Virus record (IMG/VR): IMGVR_UViG_3300013383_000024
Coordinates: 1 to 64,000 of that record
Source of the DNA: a virus
Taxonomy: Duplodnaviria > Caudoviricetes
Length of the DNA stretch: 64,000 bases
Direction: 5' to 3' (one strand)
Of the stretch, positions 2,131 through 58,310 are shown piece by piece (position 1 is the first letter of the stretch; each line of letters opens with the position of its first letter). The translations under genes and the position numbers were made by a program. The notes beneath the pieces are model-generated. The model saw only the letters and a program-made list of their open reading frames with translations. It had not been told where the DNA came from and ran no database searches.

Positions 2131-3389
2131 GAGTTTGCGACGCAATTATGGGCAGCGGTAAGACCGAGTCTGCCATCACATATATGAACGAACACCCCGA
2201 AAAGAAGTACCTCTATGTCACACCGTACCTCAGTGAGACTGAGCGCATTTGTGCTGGGTGTCCTGATTTGAATTTTCAGCTGCCATCCAACAAGTCCGCA
2301 AAGCACAAACACAGAAAAACACTTCACGCTGCCGAGCTTATCGCACAAGGGCATAATGTCGCCACGACCCATCAGGCTATAAACCAGTATCCGCCGGAGA
2401 TGATAGAGCTTATCAAGCAGCAGGACTATACACTGTTCATTGATGAAGAACTGCAAGTGCTTGAAGAGACCAGCAAGCAGAAAATGATATTCTCGCAGGG
2501 GGATCTCGATGCGCTCGTTGATGGCGGGTATGTATGGTTTGACGGAGAATCTTATCGTCTGACAGATAAAGAGTATAACGGAGAGACCGCGAAGCGGCTT
2601 ATTCACCTTATCAGAACGCGCAGCATGCTGAGGATAGACGGCGGCGGAGCTGCCTTTAAGTATTACTGGGTGTTCCCTGCGGAATTCATAAAGGCATTTG
2701 AGGATGTGTTCCTCTTAACCTATATGTTTGATGGGCAGGATATGAAGATATTTCTGGATATGAACGACATCCCCTACAAGAAGATCAGTACCATACGTAC
2801 CCCGGATGGAGAATATAGGTTTGATATGGAGATGGCTTATGGATGGGTCCCTGAGTACACTAAGCATCTTTCAGAGAAAATCCACATTGAGGATGACCGC
2901 AAACTAAACCTTGTTGGCAAGAACTATTACGATATTTCGAAGAATTGGTATGCTAAGAAAGAGAATGCAGCCGCAGTTAAGCAACTTAAGGACAATACCT
3001 ACAACTTCTTTAGAAATCGTCACGGGAATATCCCCGCCGAGTATAGGATGTTTTCTACTTATAAGGATGCGAAAGCAAAAATCAGAGGAGCCGGTTACTC
3101 CAGTGGGTTCGTAGTAGTAAACGCTAAAGCTACGAACGATTATTGCAACAAAACCGTCTTAGCTTACTGTGCAAATCTGTTCTTGGATCGATGTAAGAAA
3201 AACTACCTTGTTAGTATGGGTTATGAGCCCAACGATGATTTGTATGCTCTTTCAAATATGGTTCAATGGATTTGGCGCTCGGCCATCCGTAGAGGTAAAG
3301 ACATATACATATATATTCCCAGTAGACGCATGAGGACTCTCCTTATTGACTGGATCAACTCTTTCAATAAAGGAGGTGAGTGCGAATGA
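2118..3389 (+). CDS. SF2-helicase-like P-loop protein, SPbeta YonV-like
   Basis: N-terminal Walker A DAIMGSGKT, Walker B LFIDEE, QWIWRSAIR motif; lies upstream of the RNAP gene; true start may be TTG 2124. Confidence 0.75.
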   Translation: MPLVRVCDAIMGSGKTESAITYMNEHPEKKYLYVTPYLSETERICAGCPDLNFQLPSNKSAKHKHRKTLHAAELIAQGHNVATTHQAINQYPPEMIELIKQQDYTLFIDEELQVLEETSKQKMIFSQGDLDALVDGGYVWFDGESYRLTDKEYNGETAKRLIHLIRTRSMLRIDGGGAAFKYYWVFPAEFIKAFEDVFLLTYMFDGQDMKIFLDMNDIPYKKISTIRTPDGEYRFDMEMAYGWVPEYTKHLSEKIHIEDDRKLNLVGKNYYDISKNWYAKKENAAAVKQLKDNTYNFFRNRHGNIPAEYRMFSTYKDAKAKIRGAGYSSGFVVVNAKATNDYCNKTVLAYCANLFLDRCKKNYLVSMGYEPNDDLYALSNMVQWIWRSAIRRGKDIYIYIPSRRMRTLLIDWINSFNKGGECE

Positions 3390-3609: not shown

Positions 3610-5514
3610 CTGTCAAAACAACAAGCGTGTCAAAAATTCATATTCAAAATACATAGCAGCAGGCTGCGCAAAGCTAAATGGAAGCTAAACTTATCGCTGC
3701 CTGATGCACGGAGAAACAACGAACTAATCTCCCTGGCTGATAGTCAGGTACTGAGATGGATAGATGAAATAAATGGAGTATACGACGCTGAACGTCGTGC
3801 GAGAGAAATAAAGAGACGAATACGAGATATACATAAGGCAGATAATTGTGCCGAACACAAACGGCTGCTGCGCACCTTGTACACAGAACTGGATAAGGTG
3901 CAGTTCAAGCCGGATTATATGTGCTTAATAATTGATAAAGATAAGGACTACTATAGAGCCAATCGTGGCTTTTCGATCAACGGAGTAGTGTATGAGAGGC
4001 TGCTGGGCACTGCCGGTGGCATTAAGAACAGGACGATAGTATATGTTAGTAAAGCTGTTGCTCCTGAAATCAAGAGACGAATTAATAACGGGCGTGACTT
4101 GACCAAAGAATTAGTTCCCGCCAAACTTGAAGCATATAAAGCGTTAGCCTGCAGCGCTACGATACCCGTAACTATGCCGTCCGGAGTTTTAGTCGTTCCT
4201 GACTGCGAGACAAAGTTTTATTCAGATATTATATATTTGAGCAATGAGAATTCCGATGAACCGGTTATGGAAGAACGCAGTAACGAGCTTGTAGAGTTGA
4301 CCGAGTCTGATGGTTACGGTCTTATGCTGCCCTCACTGGCTCAGCGGTGGAGCGCTGAGCTAAAGCTGGACTATACCATGAGTGGCTGCACGACAAGGTG
4401 CGCCTATGAAAAGGGCATGGTATTTACATTTGATTTTGTAGACTTCGCTGAAAAGATCGCCGGTACTTTTATAACTAAAGACGCATGGGGTAATGAGGTC
4501 GACATCCGTACAGTCGAGCTTATACTTACAACCTCTATGTTGAAGCTGTGGGATTCCTACGATAGCTGTGACGATTACCTGAAAAATTGCATTGCCAACG
4601 GATATACGTTTGGGATCACCAAGACTTGTCCCGCTCGTCTTGAAAAGGAACGCGGAACCAACTATCAGTTTATCCAGCCTTACGACTTGAGTGACGAAGA
4701 CATAGATGAGTTGATCGCTCCGACAATGTCTGAGATAAGAGATGTGCTTGGCGGAGACTATGTAAAGACCGTGCTATTTCTTAAAGGCTGTGGCTTAAAG
4801 GATGACGATGTTTCGTCGCTGGCAAATAACTATGCCAAGGCTATTATGATCGAGCCTCGCATCCTTAACGATCCCTATATTCAGGGCAACATATATCAGC
4901 TTATAAAGAACCGGGTTAACGAAGCCAAGGTTGGTGTGCTTAATGTCCACGGGAATTACTCAATAATTTGCGGAGACCCATTTTCGCTGTGTCAAAGCAT
5001 TTTCGGACTTCCCGTCACTGGATTACTTAAGGCCGGGGAGATTTATAATAAGTTTTGGCTCGACGCGGGGGCTGACAAGCTTGCCTGTTTCCGAGCGCCT
5101 ATGTCAGTTGCCAACAATATCAGACTGGTAAATGTGCATCGCAGCTATGCAGCTTCGTACTGGTACAGATACCTGACCACCTGTACTCTGATGAATAGCT
5201 TTGATACTGCAGCCCAAGCTCTCAACGGCGCTGATAAAGATGGAGACCTTGTAATGTTAACTGACAACAACACATTGGTTAACTGCCTAACTCCCCTGCC
5301 AGCTATTGTGTGTGCTCAGCGGAGAGCTGCTAAAAAGGTTGTCACAGAGGACGACATTATCATGTCTAACGTAAATAGCTTCGGCGACGAGATCGGCAAG
5401 ATAACAAACCGCGTAACATCCATGTATGAGGTGCAGGCAAGATACGAAAAAGATTCGCCAGAGTATAGAGAGCTGGATTATAGAATCAAGTGCGGCCAGC
5501 TCCTCCAGCAGGAT
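3610..5514 (+). CDS. yonO: Single-subunit RNA polymerase, YonO-like (cRdRP-fold two-barrel), exon 1
   Basis: Open frame from CTG 3610 behind RBS GGAGGGA; SDGYG motif, FRAP motif, catalytic NGADKDGD (5233-5247); spliced product 914 aa. Confidence 0.85.
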
Positions 5515-8552: not shown

Positions 8553-9717
8553 TGAAACTGAGCTCGCCCATCACAAACGCCTTATTTACGGTAAGCTTGT
8601 AGATAAGACTTTAGCTGATGTCGATTACTCTGAACTGGCTGAGGAGCTTTATGGGCAGTCATACAGCAGTGACGTTGCGCGACGTATGGCATATGGATCC
8701 CGTAAGACACTCGAACTGATAGAGCGTCAAAGCGAAGATGCATTAGCCGCTGATGGTTTACTCGGTGAGTTAGATATAAAGCGTTTTGAATTGCAGAAAG
8801 AGCGACAAAAGTTTTTTGATTATCGAGCTGCTTTTAATAAGCTGCTTAGAGAGCGCTCTCGGCAGGAAGAACTAAATGACATACTTGTCAAAGCAATCGC
8901 GGATAGCGACCTTCCTGTACTAAATTATATTCCTCACGAGTTTACGCCGTCGGACAATGACTTGTTGGTTAGTCTCAATGATATTCATTATGGTGCTAAC
9001 GTTAAAAATTATTGGAACACGTACAATTCAGAAGTCTGCGCAGAAATGTTTGAGCGCTATATAGATAGGATACTTGAGATTCAACAGATACATAACAGTG
9101 AAAATTGCATCATTTGGTGTAACGGCGATGAAATTAGCGGATCTATTCATCACTCTATCGCTGTGACCAACAAAGAGAATGTAATAGAGCAGATCAAAGG
9201 AGTGTCTGAGCTTATAGCAGAATTTCTTGCCGCACTCAGTCCCTATTTTAAATCAGTAATATTCTTAAGTGTTCCCGGCAATCATAGCCGAATGGATACT
9301 AAGGAGAGAGCTTTGCTCAGCGAAAGACTTGATGATCTTATTGGCTGGTATCTTAATGCCAGGCTACAAACCTTTGAGAACATATTTATAAGCGATAATC
9401 GTATTGATGACACAATGTATCTTATCGATATTCGTGGCAAGCTCTATGTAGGTGTGCATGGAGATTTTGATGAAACGCCTGCTAAGATTCAAGCTATTCA
9501 GACTATGGTTGGTCAACCGATATATGCAGTTCTTGCTGGACATAAGCACCATAACAAAGTAGATGTGATACAGGGTATCAAGGTTGTTATGGGCGGTTCA
9601 TTTATGGGAATGGATGATTATTGTGTCCAAAAGCGAATTTTCGGCAGACCTGAGCAAGCGGTCTGCGTTTGTGACCAAAATGGTATACGCTGCACATATG
9701 ATGTAGCTCTAAATTAA
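8527..9717 (+). CDS. Calcineurin-like metallophosphoesterase (SPbeta YonJ-like)
   Basis: DIHYG, NGD, GNH, HGD, GHKH motifs; ATG 8527 behind AAGGGGG. Confidence 0.85.
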   Translation: MSELERRPDETELAHHKRLIYGKLVDKTLADVDYSELAEELYGQSYSSDVARRMAYGSRKTLELIERQSEDALAADGLLGELDIKRFELQKERQKFFDYRAAFNKLLRERSRQEELNDILVKAIADSDLPVLNYIPHEFTPSDNDLLVSLNDIHYGANVKNYWNTYNSEVCAEMFERYIDRILEIQQIHNSENCIIWCNGDEISGSIHHSIAVTNKENVIEQIKGVSELIAEFLAALSPYFKSVIFLSVPGNHSRMDTKERALLSERLDDLIGWYLNARLQTFENIFISDNRIDDTMYLIDIRGKLYVGVHGDFDETPAKIQAIQTMVGQPIYAVLAGHKHHNKVDVIQGIKVVMGGSFMGMDDYCVQKRIFGRPEQAVCVCDQNGIRCTYDVALN

Positions 9718-9722
9718 AACAG

Positions 9723-9749
9723 AAGCGGAGGCTATTCAGCCTCCGCTTT
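9723..9749 (+). terminator. Intrinsic terminator
   Basis: AAGCGGAGGCT-attc-AGCCTCCGCTT-T. Confidence 0.7.
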
Positions 9750-9882
9750 GTGCGTTATATGGGCGGATTTCTCCTTATGTGGGTCGGTAGACTTCCGGCA
9801 CAATATCGCACTTTCTCAGAACGATTTTAATGCCGAACTTGTCGTATGTCAAGTAAAACACAGAGAAAAAGGAAGTGAATAA

Positions 9883-10350
9883 ATGAATGTAACGAAGAAA
9901 GAGCTGATATTGAGGGTATCTCAGATAATCCGCAGCGCCGGATACCGCAAGACTGTAAAGATACCCAAACATTCTTTTACTATATCAGATAATTGTGGCA
10001 ACACCAACCGCTTTGATGTGACCGGCAGAGTCAAGAAAGTTACCATAGACGAAGCTGATGTTGCTGCTGTCATAGAGGCATGCATAGAGCTTATTTATGA
10101 AACTCTAGCTAAGGGCGACGCGATCAAGCTGAACGGCCTGGGTATATTGGGCGTAAAAACGAGAGCCGCAGGTAAGGTTCGTCGCCTGGACACTAACGAG
10201 ATTGTAGATGTTCCGGAAAGGCGGCTCCCATATTTCGCCGCAAGCGACAAACTCAAAGCAATTGCTAGAGTTAGTGGTAATGGAAGTGACCCTTCAATTT
10301 CTTACTACGAGGAATGTGAGCTCGACGATCCTGAGTTGGACGGTGAGTAA
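9883..10350 (+). CDS. HU/IHF-family DNA-binding protein (YonN-like)
   Basis: TKKELI N-terminus; GDAIKLNGLG..KTRAA..R..T.E...VP.R..PYF..S..LK. Confidence 0.8.
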   Translation: MNVTKKELILRVSQIIRSAGYRKTVKIPKHSFTISDNCGNTNRFDVTGRVKKVTIDEADVAAVIEACIELIYETLAKGDAIKLNGLGILGVKTRAAGKVRRLDTNEIVDVPERRLPYFAASDKLKAIARVSGNGSDPSISYYEECELDDPELDGE

Positions 10351-26548: not shown

Positions 26549-27778
26549 GTGGTGAGGATTTTGGCTACAGGATCTAATTCCGATATTGAACTATTAGCCG
26601 GACTACAAGGTGGAGGTTCGATAGCCGGAGCGTCCGGCAGAAGAATTCAGCACGAACTTGAAAATATAATTAATCGCATAAACAAAAATCCTGCCGGGGT
26701 CAAGATCACACTCAGCAAAAACGGTGAGACGCTACTCAAACAGGATATTGCCAAGGCTGTAGAGTCTGTTAAGATTAAAAGCTTTAATACTACTGCTGCT
26801 GTAGCTAAACTGAAAACAGATATTCAGGCAGCACTTGCTGGAGTTGCAATACCTGTTGGGGCTGTGGCTGCCGGTGCTGCTACCGGAGCAACAGCTACCG
26901 CTCAAGCACAAACCACAACAGGAACTGTAAATGCCGCAGAGATTGACGGAATCACTAAAGCCGTCAAATCGTTTAACGCTCAATTATTGATATCAAATCG
27001 GCGCATAAAAACTGTTAAGGCGACTGCGTCTGGTCTCAAAGAGGCGTTAGACGGTGCGTCGAGTTTAGCTGGAGGCAGCACATCTTCAGGAAGTCCTGCT
27101 AAGAATCCCAGCAGCACTATGGCTAGCCTCCAGCAGATTATCTCGTTGAGCAAGAAGGCAGAATCGCTGCTGAGGAATAATCCGCGCATTGTTAGCACGG
27201 GGTACGGAGATACTCTTAATTCTGTAATTGAGCAACTTAAAACGGGTTCAGTAGGCAAAGACGTTTTTAAGCAACTAAAGAACGACGTACTCCAAGTGGA
27301 AGTCGGGCTTAGAAATGCAGGATTACAGGGTAAGACATTATGGTCTGTCTTAAAGTCCGGTTATGAAAAGTTCGGTGGTTGGGCGCTCATAACGAAGTCT
27401 ATGATGGCAGCGGCAAATTCCGTGCGTCAAATGATAGATAACGTTACGCAGCTGGATGCAGCAATGACCGAATTGCGCAAGGTTACCGACGAAACAAATG
27501 CGACTTATGAGCAGTTCTTCTCGGATGCTACGGTGCGTGCGAGGAGTTTGGGCGCGACCGTTACCGATACGATCAACGCCACGGCGGATTTTGCACGTCT
27601 TGGATATAACATTGACGATGCTGCTACTCTCGCCGATACGGCAATTATATATAAGAATGTCGGCGACGGTATAACCGACATTGGTGTCGCCTCGCAAAGT
27701 ATTATATCTACATTAAAGGGTTTCAGCCTTGAAGCGGAAGATGCAACGCATGTTGTCGATGCATTTAACGAAGTGGGT
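26549..27778 (+). CDS. Tail tape measure protein, exon 1
   Basis: TP901-type core LDAAMTELRKVTD..FARLGY..DAFNEVG; start possibly TTG 26561; spliced product about 2430 aa. Confidence 0.88.
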
Positions 27779-27914
27779 AAATGTTTATGCCCAGCGGCGT
27801 AGTAATACGTCGTAAGCACATAGCTATAACGGTTAAAGGCCGGAGACGGTTCAGACCGTGGAAAGACTTAGTGTTTGTATATATAATGAATATGAATGAA
27901 AGGGTACAATATAA

Positions 27915-28109
27915 ATGAATAACAAAGATCTTTGGAATAATACAATTACCGTTCTTTTTAGAGAACCGAACGGAGAACTCATAAAAAACAAGTGTTATAC
28001 TAAAACTTTTCGGCGCTTCGCATTTGATAACTTACTCGGTGCCGCTGTCGGAGTATTAATTGGAGAACTAGCTTATGATCTCATACAATATATCGAGAAT
28101 CTGCTTTAA
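27915..28109 (+). CDS. Intron-borne 64-aa protein with hydrophobic C-terminal helix
   Basis: RBS GAAAGGG; LLGAAVGVLIGELAY segment; 42-nt 3' overlap with the antisense gene. Confidence 0.5.
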   Translation: MNNKDLWNNTITVLFREPNGELIKNKCYTKTFRRFAFDNLLGAAVGVLIGELAYDLIQYIENLL

Positions 28110-28430
28110 CAGTTCTGTGTCGCCAGGGTACGCTTGTGCTACTTTGTTTATTTCTATATCCAGCAGTCTGTAGATGATATTAATTATGCCGTTTGCAGTT
28201 AGGTTTTCTACGGTTAGATGTTCGGATAATTTACTTGTGATTTTGCAGATTATATCAGCGCTTTTCTTTGAAAGTGTTACTTTCCTGTCGGGATTCTTCT
28301 CCAGCTCCGATAATCTTTGCCGACATATACATACAAGTTCGTCAAAGGTTAGCGTATCTAGTTCTCCCAAAGTAACATGGTCGAGCTCACCCAAAGTTAG
28401 GCTATCTAAATCTCCTATCGTTAACGTCAT
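28068..28430 (-). CDS. Intron-borne antisense 120-aa protein with N-terminal TLGELD repeats
   Basis: RBS GAGGTG 6 nt before ATG 28430; MTLTIGDLDSLTLGELDHVTLGELDTLTFDEL...; own promoter. Confidence 0.8.
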   Translation of the reverse strand: MTLTIGDLDSLTLGELDHVTLGELDTLTFDELVCICRQRLSELEKNPDRKVTLSKKSADIICKITSKLSEHLTVENLTANGIINIIYRLLDIEINKVAQAYPGDTELLKQILDILYEIIS

Positions 28431-28460
28431 ATCGAGCACCTCAAGAAATAATATACACAA

Positions 28461-28489
28461 ATTGTAACACAAAATCATTATATATACAA
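28461..28489 (-). promoter_or_regulatory. sigma-A promoter of the antisense intron cargo gene
   Basis: Minus strand TTGTAT-N17-TACAAT with TGn extended -10. Confidence 0.7.
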
Positions 28490-28684
28490 ACATTATTTAT
28501 CCCGAGAGACTGTAATGCCCACCATGGTAACATGGTGGGCTTCGCTATGCCCCCATATAAATATGGGGTGAAGATCCAGTCCGAACTGCGGCTATAATCT
28601 TAAAATGAAACCGCAGAACGAGGTAGAAATGCCTCGTCGCCGCGCAAGCGGTCAGTACCGTGGCAACGGGAAAGTAACAGATTG

Positions 28685-31600
28685 AATAATTTTGCCATCT
28701 CCTCGGCGGGCATTGGCGATGCGTTAACCCGTTCAGCAGCTTCTTTGTCTGCTGCGAATAATACCATGGAAGAGTCCATTGCGCTTATTACCGCAATGAA
28801 CACCACTCTCCAAGACCCCGAAAAAGTGGGTACAACATTAAAAACAATCACTATGTATCTTCGCGCTTCCAAAGTTGAGCTTGAAGAAGCCGGTGAAAGC
28901 ACAGAAGGTATGGCAGAGTCGACCTCAAAACTGAGAGATTCGGTACTTGCTCTTACAGGGCAAAAGGTTGACATAATGCTTGGTGATGGAAAGACATATA
29001 AATCTACATATCAAATCCTCAAAGAGATATCTCAGGTCTGGTCGTCTATGGCCGATATTGACCAGGCAGCATTGCTGGAACTTCTTGGCGGCAAGAGGAA
29101 TGCAAACGCTACTGCAGCATTAATTCAAAACTTTGGAATTGCTGAACAGGCACTTGAGTCTGCAACCAACTCCGCCGGTTCTGCCGCTGCCGAAAATGAG
29201 AAATATCTCGATTCTATTCTTGGTAAGGTAGCTCAGTTTAACGCCGCATTCGAGACATTATCTGCAACTGTTATTGATGCAGATTTCTCAAAGGGCGTAG
29301 TTGATGCGGGTACTACCATACTCGACATTATAACTAAACTTATTGATGGTCTCGGCACGCTTAATACGCTGGCTATGGGCGTAGGCGCTGCACTTAGTCT
29401 TGGAAAGGTTAATTCAATATTCTCGCCTTTCCAAGTTGGGGTTAAAGCAAATTCAAATGGCGGCGATTTCACCAGCAGCTTCAGCGTCGGCTTTACGTCC
29501 CAGTTGTCCCGGGACAAGGCCGGTATTGATGCGTACAATGCTGCACTTCAAACATATAATAGCGAACGCAAGAAAGCTGAAAAGGATAAGGACGCACTTA
29601 TCAAGGCGCAGAACGATTTCAAAGACGCTACCGAAGCTGCGAAAGCGAGCGTTTCCGGCAGCACTAAAGAACTAATCAATCTCCATGCCGCGCAGGAGAA
29701 GGGCGTCTCTGCTACTAACAGCAGCTCTAAAGCACTCATTACGCTCCGAGCCAAGACGATTGCCGCAACAGTTGCCACTACAGCTTTAAACATGGCAATT
29801 TCCCTTGGTTTATCTTTAGCTATTCAAGGGATCGTAACCGGAATTGACTATTTGATACATAGAGAAGAGCGCATGGCTGAGGCGGCTGAAGAAGCAAGTG
29901 ATTCCGTCTCGAAAATTAGTGCGGAGGCTAAGGAACTTAAATCCTCTACTCAGAGCGCAGCAACCACAATACAGGCGTTTGGAAACCAAATCAAATACGT
30001 TAATGGCAAATTAACTTCTGACACGTTATCTACAGAGCAAATAACCCAGTATTCTGAGGCGGTCAAAAGTTTGACCGAAATGTATCCGTCGCTCATATCC
30101 GGGTACGATGCCGAGGGTAATGCCATTATTAGCCTTAGCGGCGGATACTCAAGCCTAACTAAGAATATTGATGCCGCATATAAAGCCAAGCTTCTTTTGA
30201 TGAATGCTGAGCTCGACGAAAACATGCCCGACATTGTTAAAGATGCATCTTACAAAACGTCATCCCTTACCACACAACTTAAAAACAGTCGGGCTTTAGT
30301 TGAGATGGCGAAACGCTTGGCTAAAGACCCGCATAACAAGACAGATAACATCTCGGTTTCCGAGAGAGATCTCGTTGATTGGCTTTACGGCGAAGACAGT
30401 GCCGAGTTAGCAGTTAATCTAGAGAAGCTCGACCCGTCACGTGCTTTGAATCAGCTTATCGCAAAAGAGGGCGGTAAATGGTTTGAGGACAATAAGTATT
30501 TAGGTGTTACAATTGCCACCGATTCCATGAAAGGATGGGCAACTGGTATTAAGCAAGTGTTTTCCAGTGAGGATGGTGGTAAGAAATTAGATAGTTCCGC
30601 CATCGCGAAATACTTAAGTTATGTAATCAGTCCAGAAAAATTGGAATCTGAAGTTTCTCAGCTTGAAGAACAGATCAAAGCCAAGTGGGCAGCAACAAAT
30701 CAAAACTTACTAAGCTATTTTTCGACAGATGAAAATTTTGTCCAAGTCAACGACGCTTTTAGCGGGCTATTAAGCAACATAATAAATGGAGCTGACTGGA
30801 ATGCGCTTATCGATGGAGATGTTAGCTGGGACAGCATTAAGGATTATGTTCAGACTAACCTTGTTAATGTTTTTAACAAGATCGACCTTGCTAGTGTCCA
30901 GGCGGATATGAAAAGCTTGTTATCCGGCGGTGCTGATTTAACGGCAGATCAGTTTACTGCGGTTTTTGACAACGTAAAGAACGCTTTACTTGAAGCGACT
31001 GGCGGTGATCAAAACCAGGTAAAAGTAATTTTGTCTAGCATTGAAAATGCTATGTCAGTCACTGCTGATGATATTATAAAAATAAACAAGCAGGTCTATG
31101 AGGGGGTCGACGGGGGCGTGAGTGCCCTTAAGATTCTTACTGAAGCGACCAATAACTGGACTACGACTGAGAAAGAAGCAATTGCTACCGGTATTGAGGG
31201 CATTACAGATGAAACCGACGCGGTAAATACGTTTATCGAAGAGATCAAAAATGGCAACCCCACGATTGCCGAACTGCAGGCTTTAATCATAAAGACGTCG
31301 GACGGCAGCCTTGAAGCTGCCGGATCATTCAGTGAGTGGAAAGATCAGTATAAAGAACTTGTCAACGATATCAGCGGGACAAGGTCTTTTAATGATATTG
31401 TTGAAAGTTTCGGCACTATAAAAGAAGCAACCGATTCGGCCTATGAATCATTCCTGAAATTAAACGGCGGTGTGACTCAAGAGGAGTACGAGTCCTGGGA
31501 GCCCGATGAATATTACAACAAGAGTGTTGAGGCATTTAATAAATTCAAAGCGCTTTATAATGAGGGGCTTATTGGTAGACGAGAGTTTGCTCAGTATCAG

Positions 31601-33346
31601 AAGTATTTTGGTTCAGAGAGCTTAGAAGAAACCGCTCAATTCTTTACCGAGCAGGGTGATTATTATATCGAAGGTAAAGAGGGTTTACAGAATTGGATCA
31701 GTAAGATCCACGAGATGAATCAAAGCGGTTTGCTTTCTAAAGATCTTGCTTCTATTGAATTTCTTGCTGACGGCAAGTCCTCATTCCATTTCGATGTCAG
31801 CCGTATTAACGAGCTCGCCGCCGCCCTCAATATGACAGAGGAACAGGCGTGGAACTTTGTGAGAGCAATACGCGCATACTCTGAGAGTTGGGAGTCTATG
31901 AGCGTAGAAGACCTAAACAACGATTTTAAAGATGTCGGAGTAATCAAAAAAATAGGCGAGGAATTCGTCGTCTCATATGAAGATATCGCAAACTATACCG
32001 GTCTATCGCGTGCTGAGATAGAGCTGCTGATAAATAAGCTAAACGAGCTTAATGAATATGACGGCAAGCTTAAGCTTGACCTAGGGCTTGCCGGAGAACT
32101 TGAGGCTGCTGGAAATGAGTTGGCAAAAATAGATTCGATACTGAGAGAGCACAACATTTCATCGTATTTTGATATCGACGAAGGTATTTTTACCGTCACT
32201 CAAAGCATGATTGATGGCATGCTTGAACAGCTGAGTCCTGAGAGAGTCAAACAGTATCTTGTTCAGTGGAGTAAGATTTCCGGCGTTGTAATTCCAACTA
32301 ATTTAAAGATCGACGGAAAAAAGGTGTCCGAGGAGGTAAAGAAGGCCACCGCGCAAGAAGACGGTACTGCCACGATCGAAGTAAAACTCTCTACAGCTAC
32401 AGCAGAGCAGGCGGATGAGCTTAAGGAAAAGCTGATAGATCTCGGTATGACGGATGTTAAAGTAGATATCGAAGACAACACAGTGACGGTTCTCGGTAAT
32501 ATAAAAGAGGTACGAAAAGCTCTATCAGGTCTCCAGCAAGCGAGTTATAACGTGTTATTAGCAGGAATAGGACGCACTCCAGCCAGTCGGTCAGGCATTA
32601 ATATGACTCCATCTCCAGTGTCGGGCGGTCTTGGACTCAATATACCAGGGATAAACGCGACTGGTACGCAAAACGCTTCACCTGGGTTATCTCTTCTTGG
32701 CGACGAACCCTCGCCTACCGGAGCGCCTCGTCCGGAGCTTGTTGTTTCGGGCAACGAAGCATATCTTGCCGGAGTTAACGGTCCGACTATTGGACGGCTC
32801 AACAAAGGCGACATAGTCTATACATATAGTCAAACCAAAGAGATACTCAAAGGTGTTAATGGCAAAGTTAGATTCCCCGCGTTTGCCTCCGGCATAGCAA
32901 ACTTAGGGCATAATGGCAGTATAGGTGCGGGCTCTTTATGGTCGAGTGTTGCTTCATCAAGCAGTAGTTCTGCTGGTGGCAACGACTTTGAAAGTTTGTA
33001 TAAATACCATCAGCACCTTTTGAAGATGGAACAAGAGAGCCAACAGGATTATCTTAATTGGCTCAATAAGGCATACAAAGATGCGTATGCGCAAGGTGTC
33101 ATAGAGTTGGACGATTATTACAAATATCAAGAAGAGGTACACGATCTCATCCGCGAACTCGTCCAAGATAATCTCGACGACGCTGAGCATTACATCGATA
33201 TGCTTGGTCATTATGATGGTAGTGAAACGCAGATAATCGCTATCTATCAAGACTTGATGAGGGCAATTGAGAAGGAGATCTCTGCTGCTCGTGCTGCTGG
33301 GTTGAATGACAACGACGAGTACATTCAAAATTTACAAAAACAGTGG
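28685..33346 (+). CDS. Tail tape measure protein, exon 2
   Basis: NNFAISS..KSTYQIL..ELLGGKRNAN; long helical ORF; 3' boundary uncertain by a few nt. Confidence 0.85.
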
Positions 33347-33833
33347 AAACAACCACACCACCTGTATTCCTAAAGAGTACAGAAAACCCATTGAACTGCT
33401 GGAAACCCCTAAAGCTATCCGTACCACAGCATAAGGATGAAATGCCTAAGTGCGACGGTTACGAAAGTAGAAAGAAACGGATAGATGGCGCAAGGTTAAA
33501 TCCTAAACGCTGCAAAATGGGCAATCAGCAGCCAAGCCTCGAACAGAGGAAGGTTCAACGACTATCCCTTAAGGGAGTAGGGTCGCAAGCGATTGGCGAC
33601 CCGAAGTGGTGGGCACCCCGTCAGGGTGATGATATAGTCTCCTCTGCATAGAAATATGCAGATGTTCGTTAATCGGGCTGATATATTGTAGCGAAATATA
33701 TTGAAGATAATAATTATAGTGCTATAAACAAACATTTATTGATTAGTTAATAAATCAATAAATGAAAAAGGTATATACATATTTAATCACAATAATACCC
33801 ATTTAAAGTTTATAGCTGCGTAATTATTGAAGG
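33347..33833 (+). ncRNA. Group I intron 6 (IA-like, ORF-less), in the tape measure gene; splice sites non-canonical or uncertain
   Basis: AACTGCTGGAAA, AATCAGCAGCC, GTTCAACGACTA, GATATAGTCT, close to introns 1 and 4; removal joins LQKQW to (W)QYRDEI in frame. Confidence 0.85.
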
Positions 33834-35231
33834 TGGCAATACCGCGACGAGATAACTGATATTCAAGATGAGGTTACCGATAACGCCAAGGATGCTGTCG
33901 AGGACTTGATAGACCTTCGTGTCAAGATGATTAAGCAGGATCTCAAAAATGAGAAAGACGCTCTCAAGGAAAAGAAATCTGCTCTTAAGGATTTCTACGA
34001 CGAGCAGAAACAAATGCTTCAGGACGAGTATGACGAGGAGGAATACCTCGATGAGCAGTCCGAGAAGCGTAAGGCTGTTACCAGCCTTGAGATGCAGCTT
34101 AGCCGTCTATCTAACGACGATTCGGCGTGGGCGCAAAAGAAGCGGCTTCAGCTCGAAAGCGAGCTTTCCGACGCACGCAAAGAGCTTCGTGACTTCGAGA
34201 AGCAGCACGCTCTTGAGGCTGCGCAGGATCAAATCGACAAGGCATATGAAATCGAGGAAAAGAATATCGATGACAGCATAGACCTTATCGAGGACAAAGA
34301 AGATAACGCTAAAGCTCTTCGCGATCAGGCATTGGAGGATCTTCGTTCTGCCGACAAGCAAATGTACGAAGATATGATTGAGTGGAATGCGCGTTATGGT
34401 AGTGGAATTGATCAGGATATAACTGAGGTATGGATGGAAGCTACCAGGGCAATGTCTGAGTACTATAAGCTCAATCGGCGATATTACGAGGATATCAATT
34501 TCAACCAAGGCGTTTATCCCGATGTTACTCCGGATGATATCGGTTCGTGGGCGAATAATCCTATTTCCGGCGACAACCCCGACAACAAATCCATCCCTAA
34601 GAATCAGCCATCTGCCGCAAGCAGTAAGGCAGGCTCCGTATCCAATATCGGGCCGCAGCTTCAGTACGGTTCTCGCGGCAGCGATGTTTCTGCGTTGCAG
34701 ACTGCTCTTAAAGAAATGGGGCTTTACTCCGACAAGATTGACGGTCACTTCGGTCCGAATACCAAGGCCGGAGTTATGGCATTCCAACGTCAGGAAGGAA
34801 TATCCGTTGACGGTATCGTCGGCCCGAACACTAAAGCCAAGTTTAAGAAGCATGGCTATGCGTCGGGCACAAGTAACGCTCTTGCCGGTCTGCATGAGAT
34901 TTGGGAAGAGGGCGCTGAGTATATCTTCACTTCTTCTAATGGCAAAAAATACAGGATGTTCTCCGGTGGAGAGAAGGTACTTAATGCTGACGCCACCAAC
35001 TTCTTATATGACTTTGCCAATAACGGCAGTAAGGTTCTTGAAACGATTGTGAGTAAGCTTATGGGTGGTGGGCTGCCTAATGTAAGCCCGTCCGTATACT
35101 CCCCCATTGTTAATATGGGAAACATCGTTGTCCAAGGCGGAGCTTCGGAACGCACTGTTTCCGAGATACGTAGGGCGCAACGTGAGCAAGTAGATTTCAT
35201 GCTCAAGGAATTCAGAAAGCTGCGACCCTAA
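33834..35231 (+). CDS. Tail tape measure protein, exon 3, with peptidoglycan-binding domain
   Basis: Frame open from ~33831; LQYGSRGSDVSALQ..DGHFGPNT..FQ..DGIVGPNT; GYASGT motif. Confidence 0.85.
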   Translation, partial: WQYRDEITDIQDEVTDNAKDAVEDLIDLRVKMIKQDLKNEKDALKEKKSALKDFYDEQKQMLQDEYDEEEYLDEQSEKRKAVTSLEMQLSRLSNDDSAWAQKKRLQLESELSDARKELRDFEKQHALEAAQDQIDKAYEIEEKNIDDSIDLIEDKEDNAKALRDQALEDLRSADKQMYEDMIEWNARYGSGIDQDITEVWMEATRAMSEYYKLNRRYYEDINFNQGVYPDVTPDDIGSWANNPISGDNPDNKSIPKNQPSAASSKAGSVSNIGPQLQYGSRGSDVSALQTALKEMGLYSDKIDGHFGPNTKAGVMAFQRQEGISVDGIVGPNTKAKFKKHGYASGTSNALAGLHEIWEEGAEYIFTSSNGKKYRMFSGGEKVLNADATNFLYDFANNGSKVLETIVSKLMGGGLPNVSPSVYSPIVNMGNIVVQGGASERTVSEIRRAQREQVDFMLKEFRKLRP

Positions 35232-41170: not shown

Positions 41171-41599
41171 ATGCCGGGCTTTAAATTGCCGATAGGAGTT
41201 CAGCCAAGGCGCTTATTTTGTCGTACCGCTGAAGACCTTTCGTTTTTGTGCGAAATCCCTAAGTGCATAAGCTTCCCTTGTTATGTTGAAGATTACGGTA
41301 CATATTTGCTCGTATCTTCGCAGGGACTAAAAATGGTTATTGCCACGTCCGACAGTGTTCTTACCAGCAAAGAAACCATCGCATCAACGAAGCGGCTGGG
41401 CAAAGGGCTTACTACGCTCGGGGATGTCGACAGTCTTACATTGAATGAACTTGATGGTTGTAGCTTTGACGAAATTACATTTGACACAGCAGAGTGGTTA
41501 GTTCTCACTGGCTCTGCGGCAAAGTTCGGGCGACTTCAAACGCTCGGAGATTTTGACAGATTCACCCTGGGAGAGCTTGACCGCCTCCCATTACTATAA
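41171..41599 (+). CDS. Tail-module protein with TLG(D/E)LD repeats
   Basis: TLGDVDSLTLNELDGCSFDEI and TLGDFDRFTLGELD. Confidence 0.6.
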   Translation: MPGFKLPIGVQPRRLFCRTAEDLSFLCEIPKCISFPCYVEDYGTYLLVSSQGLKMVIATSDSVLTSKETIASTKRLGKGLTTLGDVDSLTLNELDGCSFDEITFDTAEWLVLTGSAAKFGRLQTLGDFDRFTLGELDRLPLL

Positions 41600-50371: not shown

Positions 50372-51607
50372 ATGAGCGAAACAGTATTAAAAACTGTCCT
50401 CCAGTTAAGGAGAGGCACAACCGCCGAATGGGTTGAGAATGCCGACTGCATTCCCGCCGAGGGCGAACCTTGCCTTGATCTTGATACTGGAATGATAAAG
50501 TATGGCGATGGTGTGAGCAAGTACAGCGAGTTGAAGTATGCTGGCGGCGGCTCTCAGGCATCGCACTATGAAGGTGTAAAGCAGGACAGCGAGGCTGACA
50601 CTGCTGTTATTGAGCGTGTTCTCACTGAGTTAGGTGCGACCGCACAGAAGGACGACATTTTTGTCGTCAAGGCTCTAATTACAGAAGGTAAGTATTCTTA
50701 TACCGCATACGTCTATGATGGCGCTGTTTGGGCTGCTATGGATGGCAACTATAGCGCGGAAAATGTCTACTTCTCCGAAGACCTTACATACACTGCTCCC
50801 ATTGGCGTTATGACCGTTCCCTCTTCGGGCTCCGGTACTATTGCCGCTACCGGCAAGAATGTAAAGGAAGTATTCGCTTCCATCCTTGCAAAAGAAAAGA
50901 ATCCTGCAGCAACTCCTCCTGCGGTTACTATAACTTGCGGCCAGGTCGGTGCATATGAGGTTGGCTCTAAGGTAACTCCTGCGTATAGCGCATCTCTTAG
51001 CGCAGGCAGCTATACTTACGGCCCGGCAACCGGCATTGTTGCTACTGCGTGGAGTGTAACCGACGGCACTACCACTAAGGACACCGCAAGCGGCACGTTT
51101 GATGAGCTGACTGTCGGCGACTCTACCAGCTATACGATTACCGCTACCGCAACTCATGGCGAGGGCGCTGTTCCTAAGACTAACCTTGGTAATGAGTATG
51201 CCGATGGTAAGATTGCTGCCGGTTCAAAGAGCAAGGCGACCGGCAAGATTACCGGCTATCGCAACAGCTTCTATGGCACTCTCAAAACTAAGGATGGCGA
51301 GGTTAATTCCGCTATGATTCGTGGCCTGTCCGGCAAGTCTGGCAAAGCACTCGCCAATGGCAGCACTTTTAATCTGTCTATCCCCGTTGGTGCTATCCGC
51401 GTAATGTTCGCATACCCTGCGACCCTGCGCGACGTAAGCTCTGTACAGGATATCAACGGCATGAGCGCCGAGGTTAAGACCGCATTTACTATGAGCGTAG
51501 TCTCCGTTGAGGGTGCAAACGGTTACAACGCAATCGACTATAAGGTGTATGTAATGGATATGGCTAATGCTAACGACACTGCAAATACCTACAAGGTTAC
51601 AATTTAA
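50372..51607 (+). CDS. Tail fibre protein with Mtd/hyaluronidase-type N-terminal anchor
   Basis: LRRGTTAEW..GE..KYGDG..L.Y. Confidence 0.7.
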   Translation: MSETVLKTVLQLRRGTTAEWVENADCIPAEGEPCLDLDTGMIKYGDGVSKYSELKYAGGGSQASHYEGVKQDSEADTAVIERVLTELGATAQKDDIFVVKALITEGKYSYTAYVYDGAVWAAMDGNYSAENVYFSEDLTYTAPIGVMTVPSSGSGTIAATGKNVKEVFASILAKEKNPAATPPAVTITCGQVGAYEVGSKVTPAYSASLSAGSYTYGPATGIVATAWSVTDGTTTKDTASGTFDELTVGDSTSYTITATATHGEGAVPKTNLGNEYADGKIAAGSKSKATGKITGYRNSFYGTLKTKDGEVNSAMIRGLSGKSGKALANGSTFNLSIPVGAIRVMFAYPATLRDVSSVQDINGMSAEVKTAFTMSVVSVEGANGYNAIDYKVYVMDMANANDTANTYKVTI

Positions 51608-57938: not shown

Positions 57939-58310
57939 GTGAATAGTACCTATAATTCACGGATCATCACAAAAACCGATACATATGCTAATTGGACTGC
58001 TGCGAACCCCGTACTCCTTAACGGTGAGCTCGTCGCTGTAACCAACTGTAAATATAATGACGCAGATGACCTTGGAGTTCTTTTCAAATTCGGAGATGGA
58101 GTATCGAATTTCAACAGTCTCCCATTTATTAATGCAACGATAATTGATACGGTCTATCAATTAGTTCAACTTTACGGTGACCACGACACGGATATAAAGT
58201 CGCTGCAAACACAGGTGCAGAACTCAGTTGTCGTTTATGTTGGTTCAGGTACTCCAACCACAGAAATCGGTAATGATGGTGATTTGTATATAGATATCAG
58301 TTCGAGTTAA
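57939..58310 (+). CDS. Short Mtd-type anchor protein
   Basis: TKTDTYANW..LLNGE..KFGDG..FNSLPF. Confidence 0.65.
   Translation: MNSTYNSRIITKTDTYANWTAANPVLLNGELVAVTNCKYNDADDLGVLFKFGDGVSNFNSLPFINATIIDTVYQLVQLYGDHDTDIKSLQTQVQNSVVVYVGSGTPTTEIGNDGDLYIDISSS

Follow-up and report, generated by a model that had tools for sequence, protein, structure and literature searches.

An acidic octad-repeat protein and its convergent small open reading frame in a group I intron of an uncultured phage

SPbeta-like prophages carry type I toxin-antitoxin loci (bsrG/SR4, yonT/SR6) in which the gene of a small hydrophobic peptide and an opposite transcript converge and overlap at their 3' ends, and in the known type I toxins the N part is hydrophobic and the tail basic. 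Phage group I introns that bear open reading frames (ORFs) are likewise familiar from T4 (td/nrdB/sunY), SPO1, Twort and SPbeta (bnrdE/F), where the ORF lies in a peripheral loop, the intron interrupts an essential phage gene, and the element is mobile between related genomes. A further accessory system, Ltp of S. thermophilus TP-J34, is reportedly a prophage superinfection-exclusion surface lipoprotein that acts outside the cell and targets tail components. Here we describe a locus that resembles each of these in part, located in the first 64 kb (64,000 nucleotides, "the window") of the 99,391 bp IMG/VR virus genome IMGVR_UViG_3300013383_000024. An intron in the tape-measure gene of this phage holds a two-gene cassette, which consists of an antisense gene for a 120-amino-acid (aa) protein ("the cargo") and a small ORF that converges on it.

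As in bsrG/SR4 and yonT/SR6, the two genes of the cassette meet with overlapping 3' ends, the smaller one encoding a hydrophobic peptide, and the whole is an accessory unit with a host-type promoter in a phage predicted to be temperate and SPbeta-related. In contrast to these loci, the antisense transcript encodes a conserved protein, and the peptide is built in reverse of the known toxins (basic N part, hydrophobic C part), with no sequence similarity found to them. The intron shares with those of T4, SPO1, Twort and SPbeta the ORF in a peripheral loop, the essential host gene and the mobility between related genomes, but it has no homing endonuclease, carries a convergent pair of genes of which the larger is antisense, occupies insertion sites that share only 7 guide-pairing nucleotides (nt), and is missed by the Rfam model. 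Like Ltp, the cargo is an accessory prophage gene with its own promoter, and a tail component of a related phage could possibly be its target; unlike Ltp, its product is predicted to be cytoplasmic and acidic, without a signal peptide, and no homology between the two was found.

In the reading that we favour, with a probability of about 0.4, the cargo would be made in lysogeny and would serve, in a two-gene moron, as a docking or neutralising protein. In the libraries searched, we found no description of the cargo family, of its partner ORF or of their transport in a mobile intron that lacks a nuclease. Whatever the function, there are three novelties: an unnamed acidic octad-repeat family, the obligatory small ORF that converges on its members, and a mobile group I intron that occupies two sites of one gene and holds this antisense cassette without a nuclease, which makes this intron a rare natural case where transposition of the reverse-splicing type and a non-endonuclease cargo are joined. 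If the repeat is a docking peptide, a short portable interaction module would be common to a virion component and a lysogeny-type accessory gene, and would provide a handle on prophage interference with, or timing of, tail assembly or membrane events. The positions of all features are given in Table 1.

Table 1. Features of the cassette, its host intron and the tail-module gene in the window (+, forward strand; -, reverse strand)
Feature	Position	Strand	Description
Tape-measure exon 1	26549..27778	+	ends ...FNEVG (GAAGTGGGT)
P1 helix	27774..27793	+	UGGGU/A (UGGGUA; slash, splice site) pairs with UGCCCA; in minimum free energy (MFE) and alifold structures
Group I intron	27779..28684	+	906 nt; IA-like, with P7.1/7.2; two-gene cassette in extended P6 loop
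Inverted repeat, left arm	27873..27889	+	17 nt, perfect; GTTTGTATATATAATGA; read from sequence, stem in MFE fold
Small partner ORF	27915..28109	+	64 aa; basic N part (+4), hydrophobic C-terminal helix (..LLGAAVGVLIGELAY..)
Cargo gene	28068..28430	-	120 aa; acidic octad-repeat N-terminus and ~90-aa helical bundle (tentative)
Octad-repeat array	28335..28421	-	residues 4-32; TIGDLDSL / TLGELDHV / TLGELDTL / TFDEL
Cargo promoter, host-type	28461..28489	-	TTGTAT, 17-nt spacer, TGtTACAAT (extended -10); read by eye
Inverted repeat, right arm	28475..28491	+	17 nt, perfect; TCATTATATATACAAAC; read from sequence, stem in MFE fold
Tape-measure exon 2	28685..33357	+	begins NNFAISS...; 3' end approximate
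Tail-module protein gene	41171..41599 (ORF start 41162/41171)	+	142 aa; two repeat modules
Tail repeat module 1	41414..41485	+	TLGDVDSLTLNELDGCSFDEITFD; aligns with cargo residues 12-34
Tail repeat module 2	41540..41596	+	TLGDFDRFTLGELDRLPLL; extreme C-terminus

The cargo gene and its convergent partner

The translation of the cargo that was given in an earlier annotation of this DNA from sequence alone (hereafter, the original prediction) was reproduced (ORF 28068-28430, minus strand, MTLTIGDLDSLTLGELDHVTLGELDTLTFDEL...). In the comparison with the homologous gene of the relative L004, the ratio of nonsynonymous to synonymous substitution rates (dN/dS) was 0.06, with synonymous sites saturated, and the repeat region alone had 0.13 differences per nonsynonymous site (pN) vs. 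0.88 per synonymous site (pS); the other frames of the same DNA gave dN/dS values of 0.8-1.2 and are full of stops. Between these two introns the ribozyme cores are 90-94% identical, and the ORF-bearing loop is 67-72% identical, without gaps. The cargo is a real gene under strong purifying selection.

The 8-residue period of its N-terminus and the extra unit relative to the tail protein, both noticed in the original prediction, were correct, as the cargo has four units and the two motifs of the tail-module protein have three and two, respectively. The first 33 residues carry a net charge of -8 in the window cargo and of -6 to -8 among the cargos measured. For the remaining ~90 aa a helical domain had been proposed, and the AlphaFold2 (AF2) model is indeed all-helical, with short helical turns on the octads and helices at residues 29-45, 55-66, 79-100 and 105-119, although at low confidence (predicted local distance difference test, pLDDT, 62). 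Because the AF2 models are weak, both the bundle and the capping-box mini-helices are tentative, the latter resting on a T-x-x-E pattern in each octad (T-L-G-E-L-D-x-h) that may be read as a helix N-cap. A Foldseek search of the cargo model against PDB gave no match at E <= 0.001, and VIA-align retrieved generic helical bundles alone (Z 5-6.9; the epsilon antitoxin 1gvn_A, at Z 5.1, is among them). Generic three-helix bundles do look like the modelled C-terminal ~90 aa, but their scores are at background for helical models, so that no family can be assigned to the cargo. Likewise, profiles from Pfam, PHROGs, PADLOC, NCBIfam and PDB sequences gave nothing significant for the tail-module protein, the cargo or the small ORF, the hidden Markov models (HMMs) of PADLOC-DB 2.0 matched 0 families in a set made up of the cargo, three homologues and four small ORFs, and the ESM Atlas feature search had no usable match for either the cargo or the tail-module protein. 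Readings of the repeat as LAGLIDADG-like, as a calcium loop of the EF-hand or dockerin type, or as type VII secretion system signals (YxxxD/FxxxD) were rejected by eye, as the key residues are not spaced as these motifs require.

The promoter read upstream of the cargo is followed by a ribosome-binding site, GAGGTG, at 28437-28442. Its -35 and -10 elements are conserved in L004, where the ribosome-binding site differs (GGAGGC), and a TGnTAnAAT extended -10 precedes the cargo in six of the eight copies (window, L004, L005, L006, L009 and L029). The automatic scan did not list this promoter, its -35 having only 3/6 matches.

The small ORF at 27915-28109, missing from the original prediction, is the foremost candidate for a partner of the repeat. 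In the window its 3' overlap with the convergent cargo is 42 nt, and its dN/dS vs. L004 is 0.21-0.25. An ORF of this kind (35-64 aa, on the strand of the neighbouring genes) overlaps the cargo 3' end by 18-42 nt in 8/8 distinct loci, namely the window, L004, L005, L006 (also L007 and L008), L009 (also L010 and L011), L028, L029 and L030. In the five small ORFs that were measured, the N part has a charge of +3 to +5 and the C-terminal helix a 19-residue Kyte-Doolittle hydropathy of 1.4-2.3. All eight pairs have the layout of a toxin-antitoxin system, a conserved two-gene unit of a small membrane-type peptide and a putative neutraliser, and the charges are complementary in the copies measured; PADLOC, NCBIfam and other profile searches found no toxin or antitoxin homologous to the cassette proteins. 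The left arm of the inverted repeat overlaps a site (TGGAAA-17-TATAAT, 27859-27887, scan 10/12) that looks like a promoter of the small ORF, and no segment resembling the small ORF was found in any tail gene. On L029, two small hydrophobic ORFs of 35 and 33 aa lie in tandem after the endolysin gene (4676-4915, minus strand; G-H-L-I-G-N-E occurs in the second) and are convergent with the cargo homologue; the small partner may be duplicated there, within a lysis module.

We defined the cargo family as P0002, P0011-P0016 and P0018, proteins of 116-128 aa with N-terminal [DE]-x-h-[TS]-h-x-[DE]-h-D repeats that end in [ST]-[FY]-x-E-L and with a helical C-terminal domain. The window cargo has all these characteristics, and its full-length matches in the profile search had E values of 7e-13 to 4e-7. 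A word-based search retrieved two close relatives only; the exhaustive profile search of 1.84 billion protein representatives brought the total to 8 clusters, 116-128 aa long or truncated and all with the N-terminal repeat, by adding P0011-P0016 and P0018 (one of them truncated) and nothing else credible. Two more hits, P0017 and P0019, were spurious matches from low-complexity LGEL-type repeats. Conservation within the family is highest in the N-terminal repeat (consensus M-x-L-T-L-x-D-[LM]-D-[ND]-F-T-L-x-E-L-D-x-x-T-L-x-E-L-D-x-M-[ST]-Y-x-E-L; D9, L13, D17, D25 and L32 invariant). In IMG/VR, the GTDB species genomes and the INPHARED phages, no relatives of the cargo family or of the tail-module protein were found.

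The cassette was located in at least four genome contexts of uncultured phages, at least three of these temperate. It lies inside the tape-measure intron in the window, L004 and L005; in L028 its neighbours are an AAA-ATPase gene and the beginning of an intact tape-measure gene, and it lies behind the gene of a 338-aa zinc-ribbon membrane protein; in L009, L010 and L011, from an SPbeta-like phage with genes of the YonG, YonJ and YonO types, it is flanked by a tyrosine-recombinase-like gene on one side and an HU gene on the other; in L029 it is found between the endolysin gene and the gene of a protein with two transmembrane segments, near an integrase; and in L006 it adjoins a homologue of this same two-segment protein. 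The cargo strand is opposite to that of the neighbours at every locus with visible flanking genes. In the window genome, the HU-like gene is followed after 2 nt by the next gene, i.e., no cassette is present there. Judged from these placements, the cassette is a movable accessory unit that also occurs outside introns. Two further insertions were seen on L028, where an antisense Uma2-family nuclease gene lies between the tape-measure and Dit genes (2745-3350) and the zinc-ribbon membrane protein gene (8949-9965) is an antisense insert in the tail module, co-oriented with the cargo homologue.

The host intron and its two insertion sites

The element that carries the cargo had been called an intron, which is now supported by precise reciprocal empty sites and, more tentatively, by a fold with some covariation among three copies. 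The tape-measure ORF of the window is split into pieces at 26549-27802 and 28682-33373, and the PF10145 (PhageMin_Tail) profile breaks off with them, its positions 4-87 ending in exon 1 and positions 87-200 resuming at 28685. The relative L004 is uninterrupted across this insertion site (...FNEVGNNFAISS... in the protein reading), and its straight-through reading ...DAFNEVGNNFAISS... sets the window insert as 27779-28684. As expected for a group I intron, excising the insert restores the tape-measure coding sequence. The end of exon 2 is approximate because the next intron starts near 33358.

U27778, the last exon base, lies directly before the 5' splice site and forms a U.G wobble with G27789 in P1; the last intron base is G28684. 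Among the elements that appear in the MFE and alifold structures are P2, P3 (27819-27824 with 28544-28549, CAUAGC/GCUAUG), P4/5, a long P6, the P7.1/7.2 hairpin, P8, P9, P9.1 and P9.2, with compensatory changes in P7.1, P9, P9.1 and P9.2 among three intron copies (window, L004 and L005). For P7, we infer by eye, from the other introns of the window, a pairing of 28508-28512 with 28577-28581 (GACUG/CAGUC). The cassette-bearing loop is closed by a 17-nt inverted repeat. Three other group I introns were detected in the window by Rfam; the cargo-bearing one had no RF00028 match at the gathering score or at E <= 10, the sole match to it being a chance ctRNA hit (E 0.31), and the ~600-nt loop insert and a different subtype are the likely reasons.

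The same intron is present in L004 (9749-10652) 141 nt further along the gene, after ...DPEKVG, where the window is uninterrupted (...DPEKVGTTLKT...). The empty second site of the window, GTGGGT/ACA (28826-28831/28832), lies inside exon 2. Both insertions are preceded by GTGGGT, and the flanks otherwise share one A upstream and one A downstream, hence the two sites have in common AGTGGGT alone, which corresponds to 7 nt complementary to the guide sequence. In addition, a 1.1-kb contig (L005) contains the 3' junction of site 1 together with the 5' junction of site 2, which places the intron at both sites in one sample. From this distribution the intron appears clearly mobile, and it is so without a nuclease: in neither intron ORF was there a significant Pfam, NCBIfam or PHROGs match, or a fold match, to a homing endonuclease (classes considered: LAGLIDADG, HNH, GIY-YIG, PD-(D/E)xK and EDxHD). 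The two-site pattern is what transposition by reverse splicing should leave behind, and we favour this route over endonuclease homing because the sites share only the 7 guide-pairing nt, while homing would predict a longer target.

Related insertions were also noted elsewhere in the tape-measure gene. L004 has an extra Rfam-detectable group I intron (9141-9500, minus strand) after ...LLELLGG, a position at which the window has none, and in the window the PG_binding_1 end of the tape-measure protein (33906-35231) is separated from the rest by a related intron (33358-33661).

The repeat module shared with a tail-module protein

The cargo and the tail-module protein share an acidic octad-repeat module of 23-28 residues. 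BLASTP aligned the two at E 9e-6 in four overlapping registers, and the similarity claimed in the original prediction proved significant against shuffled controls, with a Smith-Waterman score of 67 compared with 26-30 +/- 5 (maximum 57) for shuffled versions of either protein or of just the N-terminal 33 aa, of which 0/2000 reached 67. The next best of the 433 window ORFs scored 37. A profile search of the repeat agreed with this, as hhalign joined the cargo family to the tail family with a probability of 93.9 (E 1.5e-7, 23 columns). Moreover, an HMM built only from cargos (N-terminal 36 columns of nine cargo-family proteins) found 5/5 copies of the tail-module protein among 5,450 ORFs, each with two domains (E 4e-11 to 6.5e-10), the best unrelated ORF having an E value of 0.005. 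The invariant columns of the two families coincide (cargo L13/D17/D25 with tail L86/D90/D98). In all six frames of the whole 99-kb genome, the degenerate repeat was seen in the cargo, in the tail ORF and at an isolated site without repeat context (94604, minus strand).

The tail-module gene contains TLGDVDSLTLNELDGCSFDEI in addition to the C-terminal TLGDFDRFTLGELDRLPLL. Module 1 is variable except for the invariant L86, G87, D90, D98 and F102, and module 2 (TLGDFDRFTLGELD..LL) is nearly invariant over T127-D140, with one Thr-to-Ala change at residue 135 (P0009). The family comprises 8 clusters with 59-92% overall identity. Its gene follows those of Dit (DUF6558), Tal (Peptidase_S74) and a Gp80-like fibre protein and precedes a giant 2287-aa DUF6273 gene, and this synteny is kept in 4/4 sequenced relatives (L012-L015). 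No Pfam, PHROG or PDB match was found for the protein, its AF2 model (pLDDT 35) was unusable, and a search for longer, fused forms, which is weak evidence, found none. Its N-terminal half (41171-41395) has invariant cysteines C20, C30 and C40, plus C35 in most homologues, in a stretch without known fold (R-L-F-C...C-E-I-P-x-C-I-S-F-P-C-Y-V-E-D-Y-G); these could bind metal or form disulfides.

The proposal that the cargo copies a motif of the phage's own tail protein was not supported. The motif DNA of the two genes differs at many synonymous positions, and the repeat is a hallmark of the entire cargo family, including the free-standing copies in other phages, which match the tail proteins about equally (mean Smith-Waterman 53-65 vs. 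69 for the window cargo). Every cargo-family N-terminus matches every tail protein (72 pairs; mean Smith-Waterman 51-69, mean Z 7-10 per cargo), the free-standing P0012, for instance, reaching a mean of 65, and no closer cargo-tail similarity was found within this lineage. Because the tail protein is matched about equally by free-standing members and by the cargo of this phage, the relation is best described as old shared ancestry of a module between two families, and neither as a recent copy nor as lineage-specific mimicry. No third protein family with the module was found in the search of 1.84 billion proteins, by the IMG/VR pattern or in the search for fused forms; the 11 IMG/VR matches to the back-translated D-x-F-T-L-G-E-[LF]-D pattern were all due to chance, as indicated by their context.

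Proposed function and genomic setting

In the favoured reading, the cargo would probably be made from its own host RNA polymerase promoter (sigma-A type, extended -10) in the lysogen or in early infection, and late convergent transcription would probably silence it, a timing proposed because the gene has its own promoter and lies antisense to the lytic operon. The small ORF, on the other strand, would be co-read with the lytic genes. The acidic, amphipathic array would most likely be a docking peptide for a basic or hydrophobic surface, and an exposed one, because it is terminal, modelled with low pLDDT, acidic, amphipathic and provided with T-x-x-E capping boxes. The first-ranked candidate for its target is the small, putatively membrane-active partner in the same cassette, in which case the cargo would be an antitoxin-like or antiholin-like neutraliser. 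The tail protein would dock in the tail via the same ancient module, exposed at its very C-terminus, and cross-talk between the two, i.e., a decoy action of the cargo on the tail partner, would be a possible extension.

Several observations weigh against this view. The helix of the window small ORF is borderline hydrophobic (hydropathy 1.5, with E and D within), and the small-ORF sequences are poorly conserved, with 15-31% identity outside the close pair. The structural models of both repeat-bearing proteins are weak, the timing of expression is read solely from promoter-like sequences and gene orientation, and the automatic scan found no intrinsic terminator. The tail role of the 41171-41599 product is assigned from gene position alone. 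Finally, four of the eight contexts are in or beside the tape-measure gene, a possible tail link that would go unexplained.

This link would be accounted for if the cargo array competed with the C-terminal module of the tail protein for a baseplate or fibre partner, and thereby poisoned the tail assembly of superinfecting or co-resident kin phages, as the original prediction had partly envisaged; the phage's own assembly would be spared since convergent late transcription, and perhaps the small protein, would turn the cargo off. Such a decoy would be consistent with the homology of the module and the coinciding invariant positions, with its terminal position in both proteins (the free N-terminus of the cargo, the free C-terminus of the tail protein) and with a cargo gene that runs antisense to the tail operon from a promoter of its own. 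It is nonetheless doubtful, as the window cargo is no closer to its own tail protein than foreign cargos are and there is no sign of mutual adaptation, most relatives with the tail protein come without a detected cargo (8 tail clusters vs. 3 cargo clusters in the lineage), and the free-standing cassettes of L009, L028 and L029 have no motif-bearing tail protein in the 12-15 kb available, a coverage that is incomplete.

Similarity that runs between the families and not within the lineage, together with the divergence of the motif DNA, would also be expected if homology entailed no functional link at all. The module would then be an old portable oligomerisation or docking unit, and the cargo an acidic, DNA-mimic-like regulator, e.g., of a host DNA-binding or transcription protein, which would suit the strongly acidic array and the free-standing copy that adjoins an HU gene. 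A widely portable module should recur, however, and neither another family nor fused forms were found, the IMG/VR matches being due to chance; we hold this explanation, too, to be doubtful.

A combined decoy-guard scheme is quite unlikely. According to it, a tail-assembly partner, from a kin phage or from the phage's own late genes, would bind the look-alike repeat of the cargo and the small protein would be released onto the membrane, or else the cargo would poison the tail assembly of competitors, and the unit would travel in a nuclease-free group I intron spreading by reverse splicing to 7-nt guide matches. Improbable in turn is abortive infection of the guard type, an extension of the sensor-effector idea in the original prediction, where the cargo would restrain the small membrane peptide until a protein of an incoming phage bound the look-alike repeat, freed the peptide and so killed the cell. 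The two-gene toxin/neutraliser layout with its complementary charges, the moron-like position and promoter, and a module in common with a structural protein all suit a guard, which, like the decoy, would explain the half of the contexts that touch the tape-measure gene; yet PADLOC had no match, late proteins of the phage itself would trigger the system unless silenced, and the co-occurrence data that count against the decoy count equally here.

Since the cassette sits in the loop usual for homing endonuclease genes, in an intron that is mobile and occupies two sites in different relatives, and since it also occurs outside introns as free-standing homing genes do, it could in principle be the intron's own mobility or maintenance factor (a new homing function or an addiction module). 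We consider this very improbable, given that no nuclease motif or fold was found, that the 7 guide-pairing nt shared by the sites fit reverse splicing, and that the cargo is antisense to the intron. Low-complexity LGEL-type repeats do give spurious matches (P0017 and P0019), but chance or convergence behind the cargo-tail similarity is hardly credible given the Z values of the 72 pairs against shuffles, the cargo-only HMM (E 4e-11 vs. 0.005 for the best decoy), the coinciding invariant columns and a match that extends to the S/T-F-D-E-L end of the module.

With regard to the setting, the genome encodes a large serine recombinase, an MrpR/YopR-like protein, a Pol III alpha subunit, a primase and NrdD, and the YomU, YomV and YomW Pfam families (SPbeta-type tail genes) are present in a close relative of the phage. 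The window phage is predicted to be temperate because it encodes the recombinase and the MrpR/YopR-like protein, and SPbeta-related in view of the SPbeta-type tail genes of the close relative; among GenBank phages, no DNA relatives of it were found.

Between the tape-measure and Dit genes, which are adjacent in the window (35231/35307), L004 has a Gp49/HTH (helix-turn-helix; HigB/HigA-like) gene pair (2649-3299). Mtd_N domains (N-terminal domain of the major tropism determinant) were recognised in proteins of the tail-fibre region (window 50372-51607 and 57939-58310) and in a 411-aa ORF of L012, L013 and L014, which points to possible targeting of receptor-binding proteins by a diversity-generating retroelement in this phage group. 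On L031 (5883-7799, genome 69883-71799), a GIY-YIG endonuclease gene directly adjoins a truncated-looking 346-aa NrdD fragment, so the anaerobic ribonucleotide reductase gene is probably interrupted by a further intron or mobile endonuclease.

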